NCBI GenBank assembly: GCA_040380025.1
Contig: JBEIJY010000037.1
Location: 1 to 20,296 of the forward strand
From: Bdellovibrionales bacterium
GTDB taxonomy: Bacteria; Bdellovibrionota; UBA1018; CAIMNF01
DNA length: 20,296 nt
Direction of reading: 5' to 3'
Part shown: piece by piece, positions 3 to 13,734 of the stretch
Layout: every line of letters begins with the position of its first letter
Numbering within the stretch: position 1 is the first letter of the stretch
Translations under genes and position numbers: made by a program
Notes under the pieces: model-generated
What the model saw: the letters and a program-made list of their open reading frames with translations, nothing else
What the model was told of the DNA's origin: nothing
The model's database searches: none

Positions 3-2987
3 CGCCTGGTGACCGTCTCGGGCGATTCACAAACAGGCACCGTGAATCAGCAACTGGCAAATCCCCTGATCGTGAGACTCGAAGACTCCCATCAAAACCC
101 GGTGCCGAACCAGACCATCACGTTCCAGGTCTCCCAAGGAACCGGTGCCATCAACCCAGAAACGGTCACCACCGGACCCGATGGACTCGCAAGCACGCGA
201 CTCACTCTCGGAACCACCGCCTCTTCGCATACCGTACAAGCCTCGGCGGCAAGTCCGCCCCTCCAGGTTCAGTTCTCGGCAACCGCGAATCCGGGTGCTC
301 CCCATCGCATCGTATTCACCACCGAGCCCTCGAACACCACCGCAGGATCACCCCTTAGCGTTGCGGTCGAGGTGTGGGATCCGTTTCAAAATCCCATTCC
401 GACCGCCAACGGGGCGGTTTCACTCACGATCTCGGCAGGGGCGATCGCGGCAGGGGGCAGTGCGAACCTTGTCAACGGAAGAGCCCAATTCAACAACCTC
501 ATCATCAACACCGCAGGAGATAATCTCATTCTCACGGCTAGCTATGGCGGCCTCACCGCGGCCTCGAGCCCATTCGACGTGAACCATGGAAGCCTTGCAA
601 GACTCGAGTTCGCGAATCCACTGCAACACACGACTGCAGGCGCTCTTCTTCCTGTCCAGCCCGTCATTCGAGCCTTTGACATCCACGAAAACCTCCTCAC
701 CGGTGACACCTTGTCTCTACTCTCGCTCTCCGCTCACTCCTCTGCCAACTGCTCAGACACTCCCGTTCCGGGAGCTCTTACCGTGAATTCCAACCCGATC
801 CCGCTCTCTGCGGGGATCGCGAGCTTCAGCGGGGTTTTGATCTCCAGCACCTCGGTTACCCGACTGAAGGCCTCAAGCGGTGGAACCTACGCATGCTCGA
901 ACGAGTTCACTGTGAACCCGAACCAAATCGCAACAAGCACGACCCTGGACAATCCGCCCGTCATCGGGGGCAAGGGGACTCCGCTTCAGTACGATCTTGT
1001 TGTACACCTCAGGGATACGAACGGAACTCTTGTCGAATACGGTGCAGATAGTAGCGCGACCTTGGAATTGACACTTCAACAGGGGAACGGAACGATCAGC
1101 GGCCAAACCATTGTTCAGGCCAACCAAGGAGTGGCGATTTGGTCCGGACTTACATTCAGCGAGGAAGGGAATAAAACGATCCTGATCACGAAAAATCCCA
1201 CCCAAGGAGGAGGCGGCCAGCTCACGATCACTCACGACCTCACTATTTACAAAGCGAACTTCCAGGGGTGGAAGCAAATCAAGGCTGTGGGAAGGAAGGT
1301 GCCTGTCCCGACCTCGGGAATCCTGGAAGAGGACGCCTACGTGATGCTGGAGTGGGATCCGGTTCAGATCCTGCCAATGCCGTCGCCCGCGCCAGTCCAA
1401 ATGGTAAGCAACTACAAGATTTATCGATCAACCCAGATCAACGGCCCGTACGAAGAGGTCGCAAACAGCCCCGTTCCCCTGCCATCTCCCCTGCCTTCTC
1501 CGGCGCCTTCGCCGGCATCGGCAATCCATTTCTTTTACCAAAGGAGCGCCGCCCTGAATGCGATTCCGGATCCTTCACCGATTCCAGGGACCGCGAACCA
1601 AGGGCCTTTGCATTACTATTCCATCGCTCCGGTCCTTCGGAGCGGGAACCGGGACTACACCATTCCAACCGAGGATGCTCCGGATAAAAGATTGGGCATC
1701 TCCATGCCACCCTACAATATGGTTCTGTTGCATCGTTGGGCTGCAAACCGAGAGATGTGCCAGGAACTGATGAACAAAAACAACTTCAACCGGAACAAGC
1801 ACTACGGATGTAATTTGCGAGATCAGGAGCCTACGCCTTTCTTAGACCTCGGCTACAACCTCTTCGTCGACACCTACGGGCAGGGGTGCAATTATACTCT
1901 CTCGAACTCTTGTAATGATAACGGAACGACCGGTCCATGCATTGGAATCAGGGGCACTACTACCCCCATGACCAACGTCACTTCGGAAAGGGACAACGTC
2001 GTTTACTACAGTCGAGATAATCAGTGGTGCTATTACAACACTACAACAAACACGAACACCTGGACCGATGCAAGGTTCGAAACCGAAGCAAATCGAAAAA
2101 AAATGGGGGCGAATTCACCTGGGCTTCCCCCGTTTGTGCGTCTCACGCAATCGGCCAGCCAGCAGGTGTGCCGGGGACAGGCCGTGAATGGAACACTGAA
2201 AAGACTTCTGAGAAGAAAAGAACAACTCTTGGTTTCGGCGTGGGACCCTTACTGGTCCGACCCTACAATTGCAAACATCGAGGCGCTACCTCTTCCCTCT
2301 CCGACTCCGCCCGGTTACAACTCTTTCCTGATCCGAGGATGCAATACCAGACAAGCTTTGGGGTTGGAATCCGAATTCAATAATTCATCGAATCCTTATG
2401 CTCAAGCAACAGGGAATAAGGACACCCTCCCCGCAACACAATTGTCCACTGTCAGAACGCTACGGTTGGGAAGCGATGCAACCAGAAATTGTGTTTCCCG
2501 GTACGGAGCTCAAGACATGACTGGAAATATACTCCATTGGGCTTCAGACCAAGTTCGATGTGACGGTACAAAATGTGATGGATTATCGGGCAATGCAAAC
2601 ACTGTGGATTCAGGGAACACGGACTTCAACAATGTCACGTTCGGCGCGAACAAAGCGCAACATGTCGACAATAGACTTTTTTCCGTCACGGACAGAGTTC
2701 AATTCCCGATTGGAATTCCTGTTACTGCAGGTTTCAGCGGGGATGGAATTGTATCAAGGAATCGCGAAACATATCACGGCGACTATTTTTTGATTTCGAC
2801 TGCCCTCGACAATTTAGGTCAAAATGTGACGCGCCCCCTTCTTTACGGGGGAGTGAACCAAGCCACAGCGGGCCGTTTTTATATGAATTTGAGATCATCC
2901 CTTGAGACGTCCGCAGCTGTTAACTTCGGCTTCCGATGCGCGGTCGAACTGAATATCCCGGATGCAATGCCGACACCGAATCCGTGA
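3..2987 (+). CDS. Large surface/secreted protein, 5'-truncated: bacterial Ig-like (invasin/Big_1-type) repeats, an Fn3-like segment and a Cys-rich C-terminal FGE-sulfatase/C-type-lectin-like domain
   Basis: The frame is open to the window edge. The N-terminal part has Ig-like signatures (SGDSQTGTV...LANPLIVRL.D...NPVPNQTITF...TTGPDGLAST.LTLG; FTTEPSNTTAG). The C-terminus has CVSRYGAQDMTGNILHW...GG...NFGFRCA, resembling the FGE-family 'GLYDMxGNVxEW...GFRC' pattern. Confidence 0.8.
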   Translation, partial: RLVTVSGDSQTGTVNQQLANPLIVRLEDSHQNPVPNQTITFQVSQGTGAINPETVTTGPDGLASTRLTLGTTASSHTVQASAASPPLQVQFSATANPGAPHRIVFTTEPSNTTAGSPLSVAVEVWDPFQNPIPTANGAVSLTISAGAIAAGGSANLVNGRAQFNNLIINTAGDNLILTASYGGLTAASSPFDVNHGSLARLEFANPLQHTTAGALLPVQPVIRAFDIHENLLTGDTLSLLSLSAHSSANCSDTPVPGALTVNSNPIPLSAGIASFSGVLISSTSVTRLKASSGGTYACSNEFTVNPNQIATSTTLDNPPVIGGKGTPLQYDLVVHLRDTNGTLVEYGADSSATLELTLQQGNGTISGQTIVQANQGVAIWSGLTFSEEGNKTILITKNPTQGGGGQLTITHDLTIYKANFQGWKQIKAVGRKVPVPTSGILEEDAYVMLEWDPVQILPMPSPAPVQMVSNYKIYRSTQINGPYEEVANSPVPLPSPLPSPAPSPASAIHFFYQRSAALNAIPDPSPIPGTANQGPLHYYSIAPVLRSGNRDYTIPTEDAPDKRLGISMPPYNMVLLHRWAANREMCQELMNKNNFNRNKHYGCNLRDQEPTPFLDLGYNLFVDTYGQGCNYTLSNSCNDNGTTGPCIGIRGTTTPMTNVTSERDNVVYYSRDNQWCYYNTTTNTNTWTDARFETEANRKKMGANSPGLPPFVRLTQSASQQVCRGQAVNGTLKRLLRRKEQLLVSAWDPYWSDPTIANIEALPLPSPTPPGYNSFLIRGCNTRQALGLESEFNNSSNPYAQATGNKDTLPATQLSTVRTLRLGSDATRNCVSRYGAQDMTGNILHWASDQVRCDGTKCDGLSGNANTVDSGNTDFNNVTFGANKAQHVDNRLFSVTDRVQFPIGIPVTAGFSGDGIVSRNRETYHGDYFLISTALDNLGQNVTRPLLYGGVNQATAGRFYMNLRSSLETSAAVNFGFRCAVELNIPDAMPTPNP
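1477..1512 (+). repeat. Three degenerate 12-bp tandem units encoding a PLPS/PAPS proline-rich stretch
   Basis: ccctgccatctc / ccctgccttctc / cggcgccttcgc. Confidence 0.6.
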
Positions 2988-9811: not shown

Positions 9812-10903
9812 TTAATTCAGCCACAGGTCGGGGCTGAGCCCGTAATTCGACAAAAGATACAACCGACAGAGTCCCGGATTTTGAGCATCGAGTACCACGC
9901 GACGCCCACCGATCAGCGCCCTTCCCGCTCCCGCGCCCTGCACCCGGAGCCGGATCTCCTCATACCGCGCTTGGTACTGAAGCTGGTGGAACTTCCCCAG
10001 TTCGGACGGGTTTCGAACGATCAAGTCCCTGAGCTCAGTCGAAACCACCGTGCTGTGAACCGCAGAAATCATCGGAACCTCAAGATCACGCCCGAACGCA
10101 TCGCGATACTGCAAGGGAACTCGCACAAGCCCCGAAGAGAAGCGAGCATCCTCCACAAAAATTCCTGCTTCCGCGGTTCCCGAATCAATGCCAAACAAAA
10201 CCAAAGAAAAATGAAACGGATCGTCACCCAAGGGACCGATGTTCAGGTCCACCACCCGAAGAAGCGCGGGATCATTCACAGCCTTCACATGAAGCGAGAA
10301 ATCAGGCGGCACATCGACTTCGAGCACCTGGCCATTTTGAAGAAGAACGACCACACCGCTTCCGGAAGGACTCGGCCGGACCTTCATGATTTCCTCGCGG
10401 AACCAGATCTCATTCAGTGGAACCTCGGAAGCCAGGGCATTTTGATGATAGAGGCGCTTTTGGCCCGCAATATTCTCGGCAACCCAGAACAAATTCTGAT
10501 GCCGATCGGTGAAGGCTTCCGGAATCTGAGCGAGTTCGGCGGGCGCCTGAACCCGGAACAGCACCCTCGAACGCGGGTCATCGCCGTACCGGGCCGTGAA
10601 CGTCCGCGATATGCTGTCCCATTGCGAAATCAAGCCGATGTCACTCTCCGGAAAACGAATGGGGTACGCAGTGAACCCTCCCGGAATCGCAAGGCGCCGG
10701 GAGAGCGATATCGGCCGCACAGCAAAAGAAAGAGGGCCTCGGGACGGAACCTGATGCAACTCAAAGTACGCTTCCCGACGGCCCTCGATCAAAACCCGAT
10801 AATCTTCGGGGTTCACACCGGCGGCAAACGCCGTGAAACCCCCAAACCAAAAAAACAGAGCGACAAAAAAACCCACCACACGCCCTCCTCTCCCGATCCG
10901 CAT
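9812..10903 (-). CDS. Hypothetical secreted protein
   Basis: N-terminal signal peptide (...FWFGGFTAFA); co-oriented with its neighbours; stops 4 nt before the ATPase start; promoter-like motif upstream. Alternative GTG start at 10876 with SD AGGAGG. Confidence 0.7.
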   Translation of the reverse strand: MRIGRGGRVVGFFVALFFWFGGFTAFAAGVNPEDYRVLIEGRREAYFELHQVPSRGPLSFAVRPISLSRRLAIPGGFTAYPIRFPESDIGLISQWDSISRTFTARYGDDPRSRVLFRVQAPAELAQIPEAFTDRHQNLFWVAENIAGQKRLYHQNALASEVPLNEIWFREEIMKVRPSPSGSGVVVLLQNGQVLEVDVPPDFSLHVKAVNDPALLRVVDLNIGPLGDDPFHFSLVLFGIDSGTAEAGIFVEDARFSSGLVRVPLQYRDAFGRDLEVPMISAVHSTVVSTELRDLIVRNPSELGKFHQLQYQARYEEIRLRVQGAGAGRALIGGRRVVLDAQNPGLCRLYLLSNYGLSPDLWLN

Positions 10904-10912
10904 CCGGCGCCG

Positions 10913-10941
10913 AGACTAGAGGAAGACCTGACGGAATTCAA
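10913..10941 (-). promoter_or_regulatory. Putative sigma70 promoter for the hypothetical protein and P-type ATPase
   Basis: Minus strand TTGAAT-N17-TAGTCT, 9 nt upstream of ATG 10903. Confidence 0.5.
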
Positions 10942-11639
10942 TTCATATTCTTGCCGATGAGCTTGAACTCCTCGGGAACGACCACTTCGGTCTTTTCGAG
11001 ATAGGTCCGGAGTCCGTTCAGGGTATTGCGCGGCCATTTCTTTTGCTTCAGGCGCACGATCCACTTCGGGATCGAACCCATCGGATCGACCATGATCTCG
11101 ACCGAGATGAAGGTGGTCTTGCCTTTTTCGATCTCGCGCAGAAAGTACCGGCTTTCGTGCATCTTGCCCCGAACGATGCCCGGCTGGGGAGGCATGGAGG
11201 GATCTTCGACCGACTTCATATTAATGATCATCGTGCGAGTTTTTTTGTCGAGCTCGACTCTTGCGTTGTACACGAAGTCTCGGTTCTGGAACGGCCAGGG
11301 CACCGCAGTGTGATTGTACTCGGTGCGATCAAACAAATCCTTCATATGAAGACGCTTGGTCTCGACGACCTCGTCCATCCATTTCTTCCGGCTTTCCATA
11401 TCCGCCAGAAGCGTCGCGATTTTTTCCATCGGAATATTCATCGTCGCTTCCCCGCGGAATCCCACGATTCCCGCATCGGTGTCGCGTCGGAAGGTCTTGA
11501 CGCCGTCGGCATCTTTAATGAACTCCCAGTCACTAAAACGCGCATCTGCCGCGGGCTTCGGGTCTTCCGATGCGTACGACAGGGAGGAGGTTGAAACAAC
11601 AGAGAGCAAGAATCCCAGAACAAGCCATGATGGTTTCAT
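10938..11639 (-). CDS. Secreted START-domain (lipid-binding) protein
   Basis: Signal peptide MKPSWLVLGFLLSVV...SYA; START hallmarks W...KD.DGVK.F, FRGE, R.KW, VPWPFQNRDFV, P.QPG.VRG and DPMGSIPKW. ATG 11639 is preferred over the ORF-track start at 11675, which lies in the terminator tail. Confidence 0.9.
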   Translation of the reverse strand: MKPSWLVLGFLLSVVSTSSLSYASEDPKPAADARFSDWEFIKDADGVKTFRRDTDAGIVGFRGEATMNIPMEKIATLLADMESRKKWMDEVVETKRLHMKDLFDRTEYNHTAVPWPFQNRDFVYNARVELDKKTRTMIINMKSVEDPSMPPQPGIVRGKMHESRYFLREIEKGKTTFISVEIMVDPMGSIPKWIVRLKQKKWPRNTLNGLRTYLEKTEVVVPEEFKLIGKNMN

Positions 11640-11646
11640 AAGAATC

Positions 11647-11675
11647 AGTTTAGGAGGTTTAAAAAAAAAAGGCAA
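11647..11675 (-). promoter_or_regulatory. Putative leaderless sigma70 promoter of the START gene
   Basis: Minus strand TTGCCT-N17-TAAACT-N7-ATG with no SD; the spacer includes most of a T10 tract. Confidence 0.55.
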
Positions 11676-11709
11676 AAGAAAAAGGGAGGGGTCCCGAAAG
11701 ACCCCTCCC
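11675..11709 (-). terminator. Rho-independent terminator of flagellin
   Basis: Minus strand GGGAGGGGTC-TTTCGG-GACCCCTCCC followed by TTTTTCTTTT (10-bp stem, UUCG-type loop). Confidence 0.92.
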
Positions 11710-11730
11710 CCAGATAAGGAGGCAACCCGG

Positions 11731-12564
11731 CTACGAAAGGAGCTTCAATGCACCTTGTGCGTTGCTGTTTGCCTGACTGAGAACTGCGGTTCCGGCCTGA
11801 GCGAGGATGTTCGACTTGACCATCTCGGAGCTTTCTGCGGCGACGTCGACATCGTAGATGCGGCTCTTGGCTGCGGACAAATTTTCTTCGTAGGTCGTGA
11901 GGTTCGTGACCGAGGAGGCCAGACGGTTCTGGAGCGCTCCCACCTCGGAGCGGTTTTCAGAAAGCCTGGTAATCGCTGAGTCGATCTTGGCCAGATTCGC
12001 CTGAGCCGCCTCTTTCGACTCGGTGTTCACATCGGCAATCCCGAGACCATCGGTCGTGACATTCAGTTTTTGGACGTCAAACTTGAAGCGATCAAGCTCC
12101 GGCGAGTTATGAAGCCCCACCTGGATCTCGAGCGGGTCGCCCACGCCCGAGAGGAGCTTGCGGCCGTTGAATTCCGTGGTCTGCGAGATCCGGTCGATCT
12201 CGCTCCGGAGCTGGAGCATTTCTTTATTGATGAATCCACGCTCGCGATCGCCGATCGTGTCCGAAGCGGCCTGAATCGAGAGTTCCCGGAATCGGGTGAG
12301 GATGCTTCCCACTTCGTTCATCCCGCCTTCGGCCACCTGGACCATCGAGATCCCGTCGTTGGCGTTGCGGTTGTCTTGACGGAGCGAGCGGATATCGGCG
12401 GTCATTTTCGACGCGATCGACAATCCTGCGGAATCATCCGCGGCCTTTGCGATCCGGGTGCCGGACGAGATCTTCTCGAGGCTCGAAGCCTGCTTCAGGC
12501 CCGCCGCGCCGAGATTCCGTTGAGCGACCATTGACTGTACGTTGGTATTGATTCTGAGTCCCAT
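11731..12564 (-). CDS. fliC: Flagellin (short, 277 aa, D0/D1 only)
   Basis: MGLRINTNV...LEKISSGTRI.KAADDSAGLSI, NANDGIS.VQ.AEG, TEFNG, RSEVGALQNRL, SRI.DVDVA.E...K..IL.QAG..VL.QAN. SD AAGGAG lies 7 nt before ATG 12564. Confidence 0.98.
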   Translation of the reverse strand: MGLRINTNVQSMVAQRNLGAAGLKQASSLEKISSGTRIAKAADDSAGLSIASKMTADIRSLRQDNRNANDGISMVQVAEGGMNEVGSILTRFRELSIQAASDTIGDRERGFINKEMLQLRSEIDRISQTTEFNGRKLLSGVGDPLEIQVGLHNSPELDRFKFDVQKLNVTTDGLGIADVNTESKEAAQANLAKIDSAITRLSENRSEVGALQNRLASSVTNLTTYEENLSAAKSRIYDVDVAAESSEMVKSNILAQAGTAVLSQANSNAQGALKLLS

Positions 12565-12678
12565 TTGTTTTCTCCTTATCTGTGCTGAAACCTGCAAGCC
12601 TGGCTTCTGCGTTCCGGGGCCCCATCCTCGGTTCCCACACCTGACTCTTTTTGTCCGTCAAGTGGCTTACACTGGACT

Positions 12679-12705
12679 ATATCGGTCAGCATTTTGAATA
12701 CTTGA
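12679..12705 (-). promoter_or_regulatory. Sigma28 (FliA) promoter of flagellin
   Basis: Minus strand TCAA-N15-ACCGATAT (consensus TAAA-N15-GCCGATAA), with an AT-rich UP-like region at 12706-12765. Confidence 0.85.
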
Positions 12706-12777
12706 AATAAAAAATCAACTAAAATCATATTTTTACAAATTATTGAATTAATTGAGTTTTTATGAAACCATCCCCCC

Positions 12778-13734
12778 ATGACTCCCACTTCTCTTGATGT
12801 CTTGGTAATTGGAGCCGGCCTGTCCGGACTCACTTTTGCCCGCCTTTACCAGCAGGAATTCCCCGAAGGCGCTCTGCTCGTGCTCGAGAAATCAAAAGGC
12901 CTCGGCGGACGGCTCGCCACCCGAAGAACCGATCGCGCCCGGTTTGACCACGGCGCGCCCTTTCTTACCCCTCACGAAAAAGAACGACTGGGAATCGACG
13001 GAGTCGAAAACGCGCGTTTGCGCTCCCTGCTGACTCCCGACGGAGAGCGCTTAGCGTGTCAGGACGGCATGACCGGCATCGCAAAATTTCTCGCACGAGC
13101 ACTTCCGATCGAAAAAGAAACCCGCGTCCACCGACTCGAACGCGCAGAAAGTTTTTGGCGGGCCGACACCGATTCGGGGCGATCTTTCATGGCGAAAACC
13201 GTGATTCTTACTGCCCCTCTGCCCCAGGCACTCTCACTTCTCGAAGAGAGCAAGATTCCCTTCCCTGCACTCTTTGGTGAAATTCGCTATTCGATGGCGA
13301 TCGTGCTTTTGTTCGAGGGAGAGGCTTTTCCCGGAGTTCCTCCTTCGAACCGATTCAAAAGCGGCCCCTTTCTCTCGCTTTGCGATCAACGGTGGAAGGG
13401 GATCTCGGAGGTCCCTGCCTGGGTCCTGCTCGTGAGCCCCGAACGATCGCGGACTCTTTTTGAGCAACCGGAGGAGGCGATCTGGAGCTCCCTGCTTCCG
13501 GAAGTGAGGGAAGCCTTTCCGGCCTTCTCGGGAATCAAGCCCGAAATCAAGAAATGGCGCTATTCGCAATGCGAAAACCCCATGGAAGAATCCTTCGGGG
13601 CCCTTCCCGACGCGCAAGGGCTTTTCTTGATCGGCGACGCATTTCATTCGAAAATAGATTCCTCCGGAATCGAAAGGGCGCTCGAGTCCGCGCATGCCTT
13701 TTTCAGGGTTGGAAAATCCTCCCTCCTGCCATAA
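12778..13734 (+). CDS. NAD(P)/FAD-dependent oxidoreductase, renalase-like
   Basis: VLVIGAGLSGL Rossmann motif, EKSKGLGGRLATRR, FDHGAPFLT, GMTGIAK.LA, ILTAPLPQ, KKWRYS, GD...GIERA.ESA. Confidence 0.9.
   Translation: MTPTSLDVLVIGAGLSGLTFARLYQQEFPEGALLVLEKSKGLGGRLATRRTDRARFDHGAPFLTPHEKERLGIDGVENARLRSLLTPDGERLACQDGMTGIAKFLARALPIEKETRVHRLERAESFWRADTDSGRSFMAKTVILTAPLPQALSLLEESKIPFPALFGEIRYSMAIVLLFEGEAFPGVPPSNRFKSGPFLSLCDQRWKGISEVPAWVLLVSPERSRTLFEQPEEAIWSSLLPEVREAFPAFSGIKPEIKKWRYSQCENPMEESFGALPDAQGLFLIGDAFHSKIDSSGIERALESAHAFFRVGKSSLLP

Follow-up and report, generated by a model that had tools for sequence, protein, structure and literature searches.

Does the tail of a flagellin mRNA pair with that message's own ribosome-binding site (RBS) and, if so, what would that do to translation? 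This is the question raised by one gene on the minus strand of the window, by which we mean the whole stretch of 20,296 nucleotides that was analysed. Upstream of the AUG at 12564, the RBS region reads CAGAUAAGGAG (12582-12572, minus strand). Beyond the stop codon, the tail contains CUCCUUAUCUG (11721-11711, minus strand), directly 5' of a GC-rich, terminator-like hairpin and U run. The two stretches are exact complements over 11 nt. The nearest named relatives carry the depositor label Bdellovibrionales bacteria.

Complementary ends of a flagellin message

The features of the transcription unit, from promoter to terminator, are listed here.

12679..12705, minus strand: sigma-28 (FliA)-like promoter with a TCAAG-type -35, an 11-nt spacer and a CCGATAT-type -10; a pattern match to what we take to be the sigma-28 consensus
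12638..12664, minus strand: first leader hairpin (RNAalifold columns 12-36); 3/8 pairs have changed on both sides
12621..12632, minus strand: small leader hairpin with GGA in its loop (RNAalifold columns 44-55; loop GGA in 5/6 genes of clade W, defined below); a putative CsrA site, where CsrA might possibly bind
12572..12582, minus strand: 5' arm of the long-range helix, covering the Shine-Dalgarno (SD) sequence, -18 to -8
11731..12564, minus strand: flagellin coding sequence (CDS) of 277 amino acids, with Pfam Flagellin_N and Flagellin_C
11711..11721, minus strand: 3' arm (seed), the complement of the gene's own RBS, abutting the terminator stem
11674..11711, minus strand: intrinsic-terminator-like hairpin and U run, called from sequence and folding

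Transcription would start near 12672 (minus strand), and a monocistronic mRNA of about 1000 nt would end at the 11674..11711 hairpin. The arms are 850 nt apart, the stretch from stop codon to hairpin is 20-21 nt, and the tail as a whole is about 58 nt. At the level of sequence, both arms lie on one transcript in 6/6 clade-W genes, with a promoter-like site upstream and a terminator-like hairpin downstream; the sigma-28-like promoter is some 140 nt upstream of the start codon in all six. The original prediction gave 11 consecutive perfect pairs, and 14/16 overall, over the SD. Inspection of the sequence returned the same numbers, as did a repeat finder, which reports 16-nt arms (11711-11726 / 12567-12582) that are 88% complementary. 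Note that the three-pair extension to 14/16, while present in the window gene, is not kept in orthologues. The 11-mer occurs at these two places only in the 2.35 Mb genome, which is 98% complete. Rfam covariance models, applied to 10500-13500, gave nothing significant (best E-value 1.8).

The gene is one of 8 flagellin paralogues in the source genome. The eighth flagellin (G000:C2:167233-168063, L008) is very divergent, sits on a long branch and has no clear SD. Elsewhere in the window are a 363-aa open reading frame (ORF) without a Pfam match (9812-10903, minus strand) and a 992-aa ORF of repeated, extracellular-looking modules (9-2987, plus strand).

How often should such a match occur by chance? 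In 2030 genes, we compared the start region (-40..+25) with the 60 nt that follow the stop codon, and scored each gene by its longest perfect match. Note that these genes come from a simple gene caller and that their start sites are approximate. By permutation of pairs, the per-gene rate of a match of at least 11 nt is 0.0013, and 7 genes were observed where 2.6 were expected. Matches of at least 9 nt were seen in 43 genes, against 34 expected, and so 5'-3' pairing was not found as a genome-wide property of the 2030 genes. A single match of at least 11 nt, taken from a genome scan, is not significant alone because 2.6 are expected per genome. The flagellin match becomes significant because it is conserved in orthologues. 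The chance estimate made originally, 1e-4 to 1e-3, fits the per-gene rate of about 0.001; yet one such gene is to be expected in a genome scan.

Conservation and recurrence of the pairing

A tree was built from 174 of 203 flagellin matches from 31 genomes, together with 6 genes from four other loci. In this tree, the window flagellin falls in a small group, clade W, nested inside a larger clade A. Clade W has six members: the window gene, three orthologues from genomes (L009-L011, 86-88% identity) and two metagenome genes (L192 and L207). Conserved complementarity in orthologues, with compensatory changes, had been proposed as a check, and both are found. The 11-bp helix over the SD is kept in 6/6 genes, with a net energy, once the cost of accessibility is paid, of -8.1 to -12.5 kcal/mol, and is present in the RNAalifold consensus of a 1021-column clade-W alignment. 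Among its changes are one compensatory U-A/A-U swap and one A-U/G-U change. In the 5' arm, 9/11 columns are invariant, compared with 35/96 in the rest of the leader and 1/7 in the spacer. The equivalent figures for the 3' arm are 9/10 columns, and 2/8 just upstream. Covariation inside clade W alone is not significant (104/500 shuffles reach it), six sequences being too few. The statistics for the pairing are strong because of paralogous clades, described below, and not because of clade W itself.

None of the 57 genes of sister clade A self-pairs at -6 kcal/mol or better. The tree suggests that the helix arose after the duplication that produced clade W. Leaders of clade A have a motif of their own; the 8-nt GUACAGCA is in 37/57 of these flagellin leaders, against 3/335 others, and is absent from clade W (an example lies near G000:C30 13994, L002). 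This candidate protein or sRNA site may have been lost by clade W on gaining tail pairing. The complement of the motif was present in 1/57 neighbouring downstream regions, which shows no network. One metagenome contig (L206:1318-1426) combines the downstream region of L019 with a leader like that of another lineage; it may be a chimeric assembly and was left out.

Self-matches are not confined to clade W. Of 180 flagellins, 3 were set aside because the flanks were short or the frame was broken. A perfect self-match of at least 9 nt is seen in 28 of the remaining 177, compared with 12/850 tail-to-paralogue pairs from the same genomes. In the source genome, 3 of the 8 flagellins self-match at this length, each at a different site.

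In clade C, which includes G000:C28:27040-27867, the tail motif pairs with the gene's own codons 3-6. Taking one gene per genus, the tail complement is present in 21/29 genes with the 5-nt target core and in 0/14 without (Fisher p 5.6e-6), and flanking pairs number 99 against 78.5 +/- 4.5, with none of 20000 permutations reaching 99; note that these p-values overstate the case, genera still being related. Paralogue start regions match a clade-C tail as well as its own gene does in 3/118 cases. A held-out family of the same order, added later (70 loci with 71 genes, 69 of them usable), has matches of at least 9 nt in 13/49 clade-C genes and of at least 8 nt in 0/20 clade-A genes. No self-pairing signal was apparent at -6 kcal/mol in clade E (0/10) or the operon clades F (3/72).

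Clade D is part of a 64-gene clade that, in a tree of all genes, extends across the phylum. Here the complement is found downstream in 20/24 genes with codons 2-3 GGC UUA and in 6/40 without, and the motif is in 31/64 genes of the clade versus 11/328 others, but it takes a 250-nt window, and a motif picked after the data were seen, for the phylum-wide signal to appear. The target also occurs in 2/76 paralogues. A test on codon-2 wobble was not significant in clade D (p 0.21); the C-only test gave p 0.001. Beyond the order, we applied a preset 60-nt window to 147 flagellins of other families. Self-matches are enriched in one family (3/13 versus 0/46) and weakly so in a second (6/63 versus 8/166). 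The remaining families have no enrichment in this window, for example 1/47 versus 3/234 in a family with complete genomes.

Seeds of clades C and D cover the first codons rather than the SD, and the target site varies between genes, from -27 to +22. In 9/9 examples picked by hand from clades W, C and D, 0-3 nt separate the end of the seed from a strong hairpin downstream. That the layout is common while seeds and sites are unrelated suggests that it arose repeatedly. On these comparative grounds, the tail-RBS match appears to be a real, selected RNA pairing. The original prediction is thus supported in part: pairing of the tail with the gene's own initiation region has conservation, self-specificity (see below) and covariation in a paralogous clade in its favour. 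Recurrence in other flagellin clades of the phylum is what it missed.

Clade C has further peculiarities. In the source genus, a conserved hairpin lies just before the seed, about 30-45 nt beyond the flagellin stop codon (G000:C28, L003), and most of the loops contain GGA. Leaders of the clade average 3.7 GGA motifs, and both ends of the mRNA could be linked by a CsrA dimer. Among L033 (G024) and L070 (G021), one gene's seed has moved to the SD (10 nt), and one gene has a 16-nt seed that begins right at the stop codon.

The pairing is largely specific to self. The best partner of the tail is its own gene in 4/4 clade-W cases (genomes with paralogues) and in 30/38 of clade C, compared with just 11/50 in clade A and 10/72 in clade F. 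It had been suggested that the tail might repress paralogous flagellins in trans. This is disfavoured by the preference for the own gene in 4/4, though 3/18 paralogue start regions do reach -6 kcal/mol with clade-W seeds. Hence, the best target is not another flagellin mRNA, as it would be for an sRNA of the FlaX type. Note that self-specificity is compatible both with folding in cis and with a fragment that targets its own parent. In other families, pairing across paralogues may occur. Two flagellins of one genome (L075 tail, L077 leader; G019) share a 13-nt perfect match, and a 12-nt perfect match links the tail of L437 to the start region of L449 (G186).

Predicted folding and proposed mode of action

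The original prediction had proposed folding the full mRNA. When this is done, the helix is predicted to close in both the minimum-energy and centroid structures of the whole message. Partition functions give the helix a probability of 0.91-0.97 in 6/6 clade-W mRNAs, and 0.91 for the window gene, bearing in mind that equilibrium folding of a ribosome-free, 1-kb RNA is crude. For clade W, the predicted unpaired fraction of the RBS arm is 3-9% in the full message. It rises to 34-65% when the tail is left off and to 45-72% for a nascent piece. Shuffling the seed (6 shuffles) brings the predicted figure back to 44-61%. In clades C and D, the helix has a probability of at least 0.76 in 9/14 genes and of 0.00-0.23 in 5/14. 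The clade-C gene of the source genome is among these five, and half its seed is in the downstream hairpin. The overlap seen in L003, where half of the seed sits in the stem of the next hairpin, could permit switching.

We lean, with moderate confidence, towards an icaR-like head-to-tail fold that would shut down initiation on finished transcripts. During transcription, the RBS would be open and ribosomes would load. Once the last 60 nt were made, the seed would pair with the SD region, whenever this was free of ribosomes, in an 11-bp helix. With the helix closed, new initiation would stop and the ribosome-free message would decay. Stacked together, seed helix and terminator stem would measure some 21-25 bp and might be a substrate for RNase III. 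Each transcript would then yield a limited burst of flagellin. Such a limit would tune the share of this subunit in a multi-flagellin filament and let synthesis end fast once FliA transcription ended. The effect would be repressive, and tail pairing is probably a built-in brake on flagellin production. No RNA chaperone would be needed because both arms are on one molecule. The genome encodes CsrA, FliW, FliA (over the cut-off), RNase E/G and RNase III. There is precedent for action over a distance: in Bacillus subtilis, distal anti-SD sequences are reported to repress translation and speed decay via long-range folding, with an effect that fades with distance, to a 44% loss of protein beyond 500 nt (PMC12697547). 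The 850 nt between the arms here weigh against the cis reading on that scale.

Alternatively, the last 55-60 nt, containing the seed and terminator, could be cut off by RNase E to give an sRNA. This would repress the parent mRNA in trans, as feedback in the manner of CarZ, OppZ and FliX, with the clade-C flagellin or rplJ as side targets. We think this somewhat unlikely, but it has a good deal in its favour. A seed directly before the terminal hairpin, as in the 9/9 examples, is the usual layout of 3' sRNAs. An RNase E/G gene is present, flagellin 3' sRNAs have been described in E. coli and Vibrio, and the seed is predicted to be 55-65% unpaired in an isolated 3' fragment. Clade-W seeds also match the RBS of the clade-C flagellin over 8 nt in 3 genomes, and that of rplJ (G000:C3:25303 = L487, L490, L491) over 9-10 nt in 3/3 clade-W genomes with rplJ. 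By analogy with the ribosomal-protein targets of FliX, rplJ is a possible trans target. However, the rplJ match is to a common strong SD in three close relatives, which are not independent, and it falls to 6-8 nt in ten other genomes. Also weighing against an sRNA, searches for the chaperones found Hfq in 0/61 genomes of the order and ProQ in 0/19 genomes of the family, while E. coli controls were positive for both. Furthermore, no RNase E-like RNWUU motif near the stop is common to more than 3/6 clade-W genes, and none of the six has an internal or second sigma-28-like promoter there.

A head-to-tail fold might instead protect or store the mRNA, either by keeping endonucleases away, as in hbs, or by competing with CsrA at a GGA that overlaps the SD. 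The net effect on flagellin would then be neutral or positive. In B. subtilis, a 14-bp 5'-3' helix in hbs is described as modulating RNase Y cleavage (PMC5737220), and a review states that it protects the mRNA (PMC7821165). CsrA and FliW are both encoded here, clade-W leaders average 2.8 GGA motifs of which the seed covers one, and the target site shifts between -27 and +22 among genes. We nevertheless regard protection as improbable. The clade-W helix lies over the whole SD and that of clades C and D is within the ribosome footprint, while the RNase Y N-terminal domain was not found in the source genome.

It is very improbable that the tail motif imitates the 3' end of the 16S RNA, as a generic anti-SD retained for other targets, and matches its own RBS incidentally. 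The core of the tail, CCUCCUUA, is what we presume to be the usual 16S tail; a search of the assembly for the 16S 3' end found none. Among the 2030 start regions, ten others match the tail over at least 9 nt, one of them over 11 nt in a different part of the tail. Against this, conservation of the two arms includes the bases distal to the SD, which change in step with each other. Moreover, clade C and D seeds are not anti-SD sequences, but they have the same layout and follow the synonymous codons of their own gene. Scarcely credible, finally, is a chance match or, as had also been raised originally, a DNA inverted repeat bracketing the CDS for its inversion: 2.6 matches are expected per genome and a second inverted repeat (15/16) brackets gene and promoter, but the helix is kept 6/6 with G-U pairs tolerated, 6/6 genes have the same orientation to the promoter, the outer repeat is absent from 5/5 orthologues, and site and sequence differ between clades.

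The outer repeat just mentioned (11629-11644 / 12757-12772) has a 13-nt core that is unique in the genome. It reaches upstream of the promoter and, being absent in 5/5 orthologues, was rejected as a candidate.

Known systems and significance

By analogy, an inhibitory head-to-tail fold of the flagellin message would work most like icaR and hbs. In Staphylococcus aureus, a 3' UTR motif of icaR is reported to pair with the SD region of its own mRNA, blocking the initiation complex and making a substrate for RNase III (PMC3868564). The flagellin message has this feature too: a stretch of its 3' UTR is the complement of its own SD region. The icaR 3' UTR is 391 nt, with a 7-nt motif described as missing in S. 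epidermidis (PMC7821165); here the tail is about 58 nt, with an 11-nt seed abutting the terminator, and the layout is found in three flagellin clades, with covariation. In hbs, the likeness is the 14-bp long-range helix between both UTRs of one mRNA. That helix is described as overlapping an RNase Y site in the leader and as acting on stability, not on the SD (PMC5737220).

Flagellin 3' ends are regulators in other bacteria. FliX, in E. coli, is reported to be cut from the fliC 3' end and to pair inside the 5' part of the fliC CDS, so lowering flagellin; this processed RNA of about 200 nt was found through Hfq and has many other targets (PMC10578931). By comparison, a processed fragment of the present tail is hypothetical, Hfq was not found, and the seed lies over the SD or the initial codons and pairs for the most part with its own gene. 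In Vibrio, the 3' UTR-derived FlaX, Vcr077/078 and FlaY/FlaZ likewise control flagellin translation, and with it filament composition, in a species with several flagellins. According to the same accounts, they are bound by ProQ, made by RNase E and directed mainly at other flagellins (PMC11879080; bioRxiv 10.64898/2026.08.28.747715), whereas the tail studied here pairs best with its own gene, and searches did not find ProQ. V. cholerae FlaX is also reported to repress a reporter of its own flaA (PMC11879080). OppZ and CarZ, of the same species, resemble the mechanism proposed here in that a short 3' UTR element (52 nt for OppZ) represses translation of its own transcript. Both derive from operons, and OppZ is reported to require RNase E processing and Hfq, an intramolecular route having been tested and ruled out by its authors (PMC7398697).

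The original prediction was not aware of pairing of this kind having been described for a flagellin. Given that FliX pairs with its own fliC mRNA, and that FlaX represses its own flaA reporter, this holds only in part. Among the papers listed by literature searches, none deals with this pairing in Bdellovibrionota flagellins. What is new is that the pairing recurs, covaries and is self-specific within one family of genes, in a lineage for which searches did not find Hfq.

Among bacterial 5'-3' mRNA helices, the two that have been studied best, those of icaR and hbs, are reported not to be conserved in close relatives (PMC7821165). In contrast, covariation here extends over many genera, and the pairing appears to have separate origins in several paralogue clades. 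More tentatively, and as a possibility we would not yet favour, the Bdellovibrionota may have evolved a chaperone-free, closed-loop mRNA at least three times, in separate flagellin lineages, with a terminator-stacked seed that binds the gene's own initiation region firmly enough to fix synonymous codons across the phylum. The loop would act as a counter for each transcript, holding every flagellin to one burst of translation and thereby determining the mix of subunits in the filament. If this were true, 5'-3' pairing would be a design rule conserved within a gene family and no mere oddity of single species. Five complete, single-contig genomes of one genus, each with five or six flagellins, have the clade-D form. 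They have the look of cultured Bdellovibrio-type strains, so that an experimental test seems feasible. For bacteria that have five to eight similar flagellins, the pairing suggests a testable way of setting the output of each.
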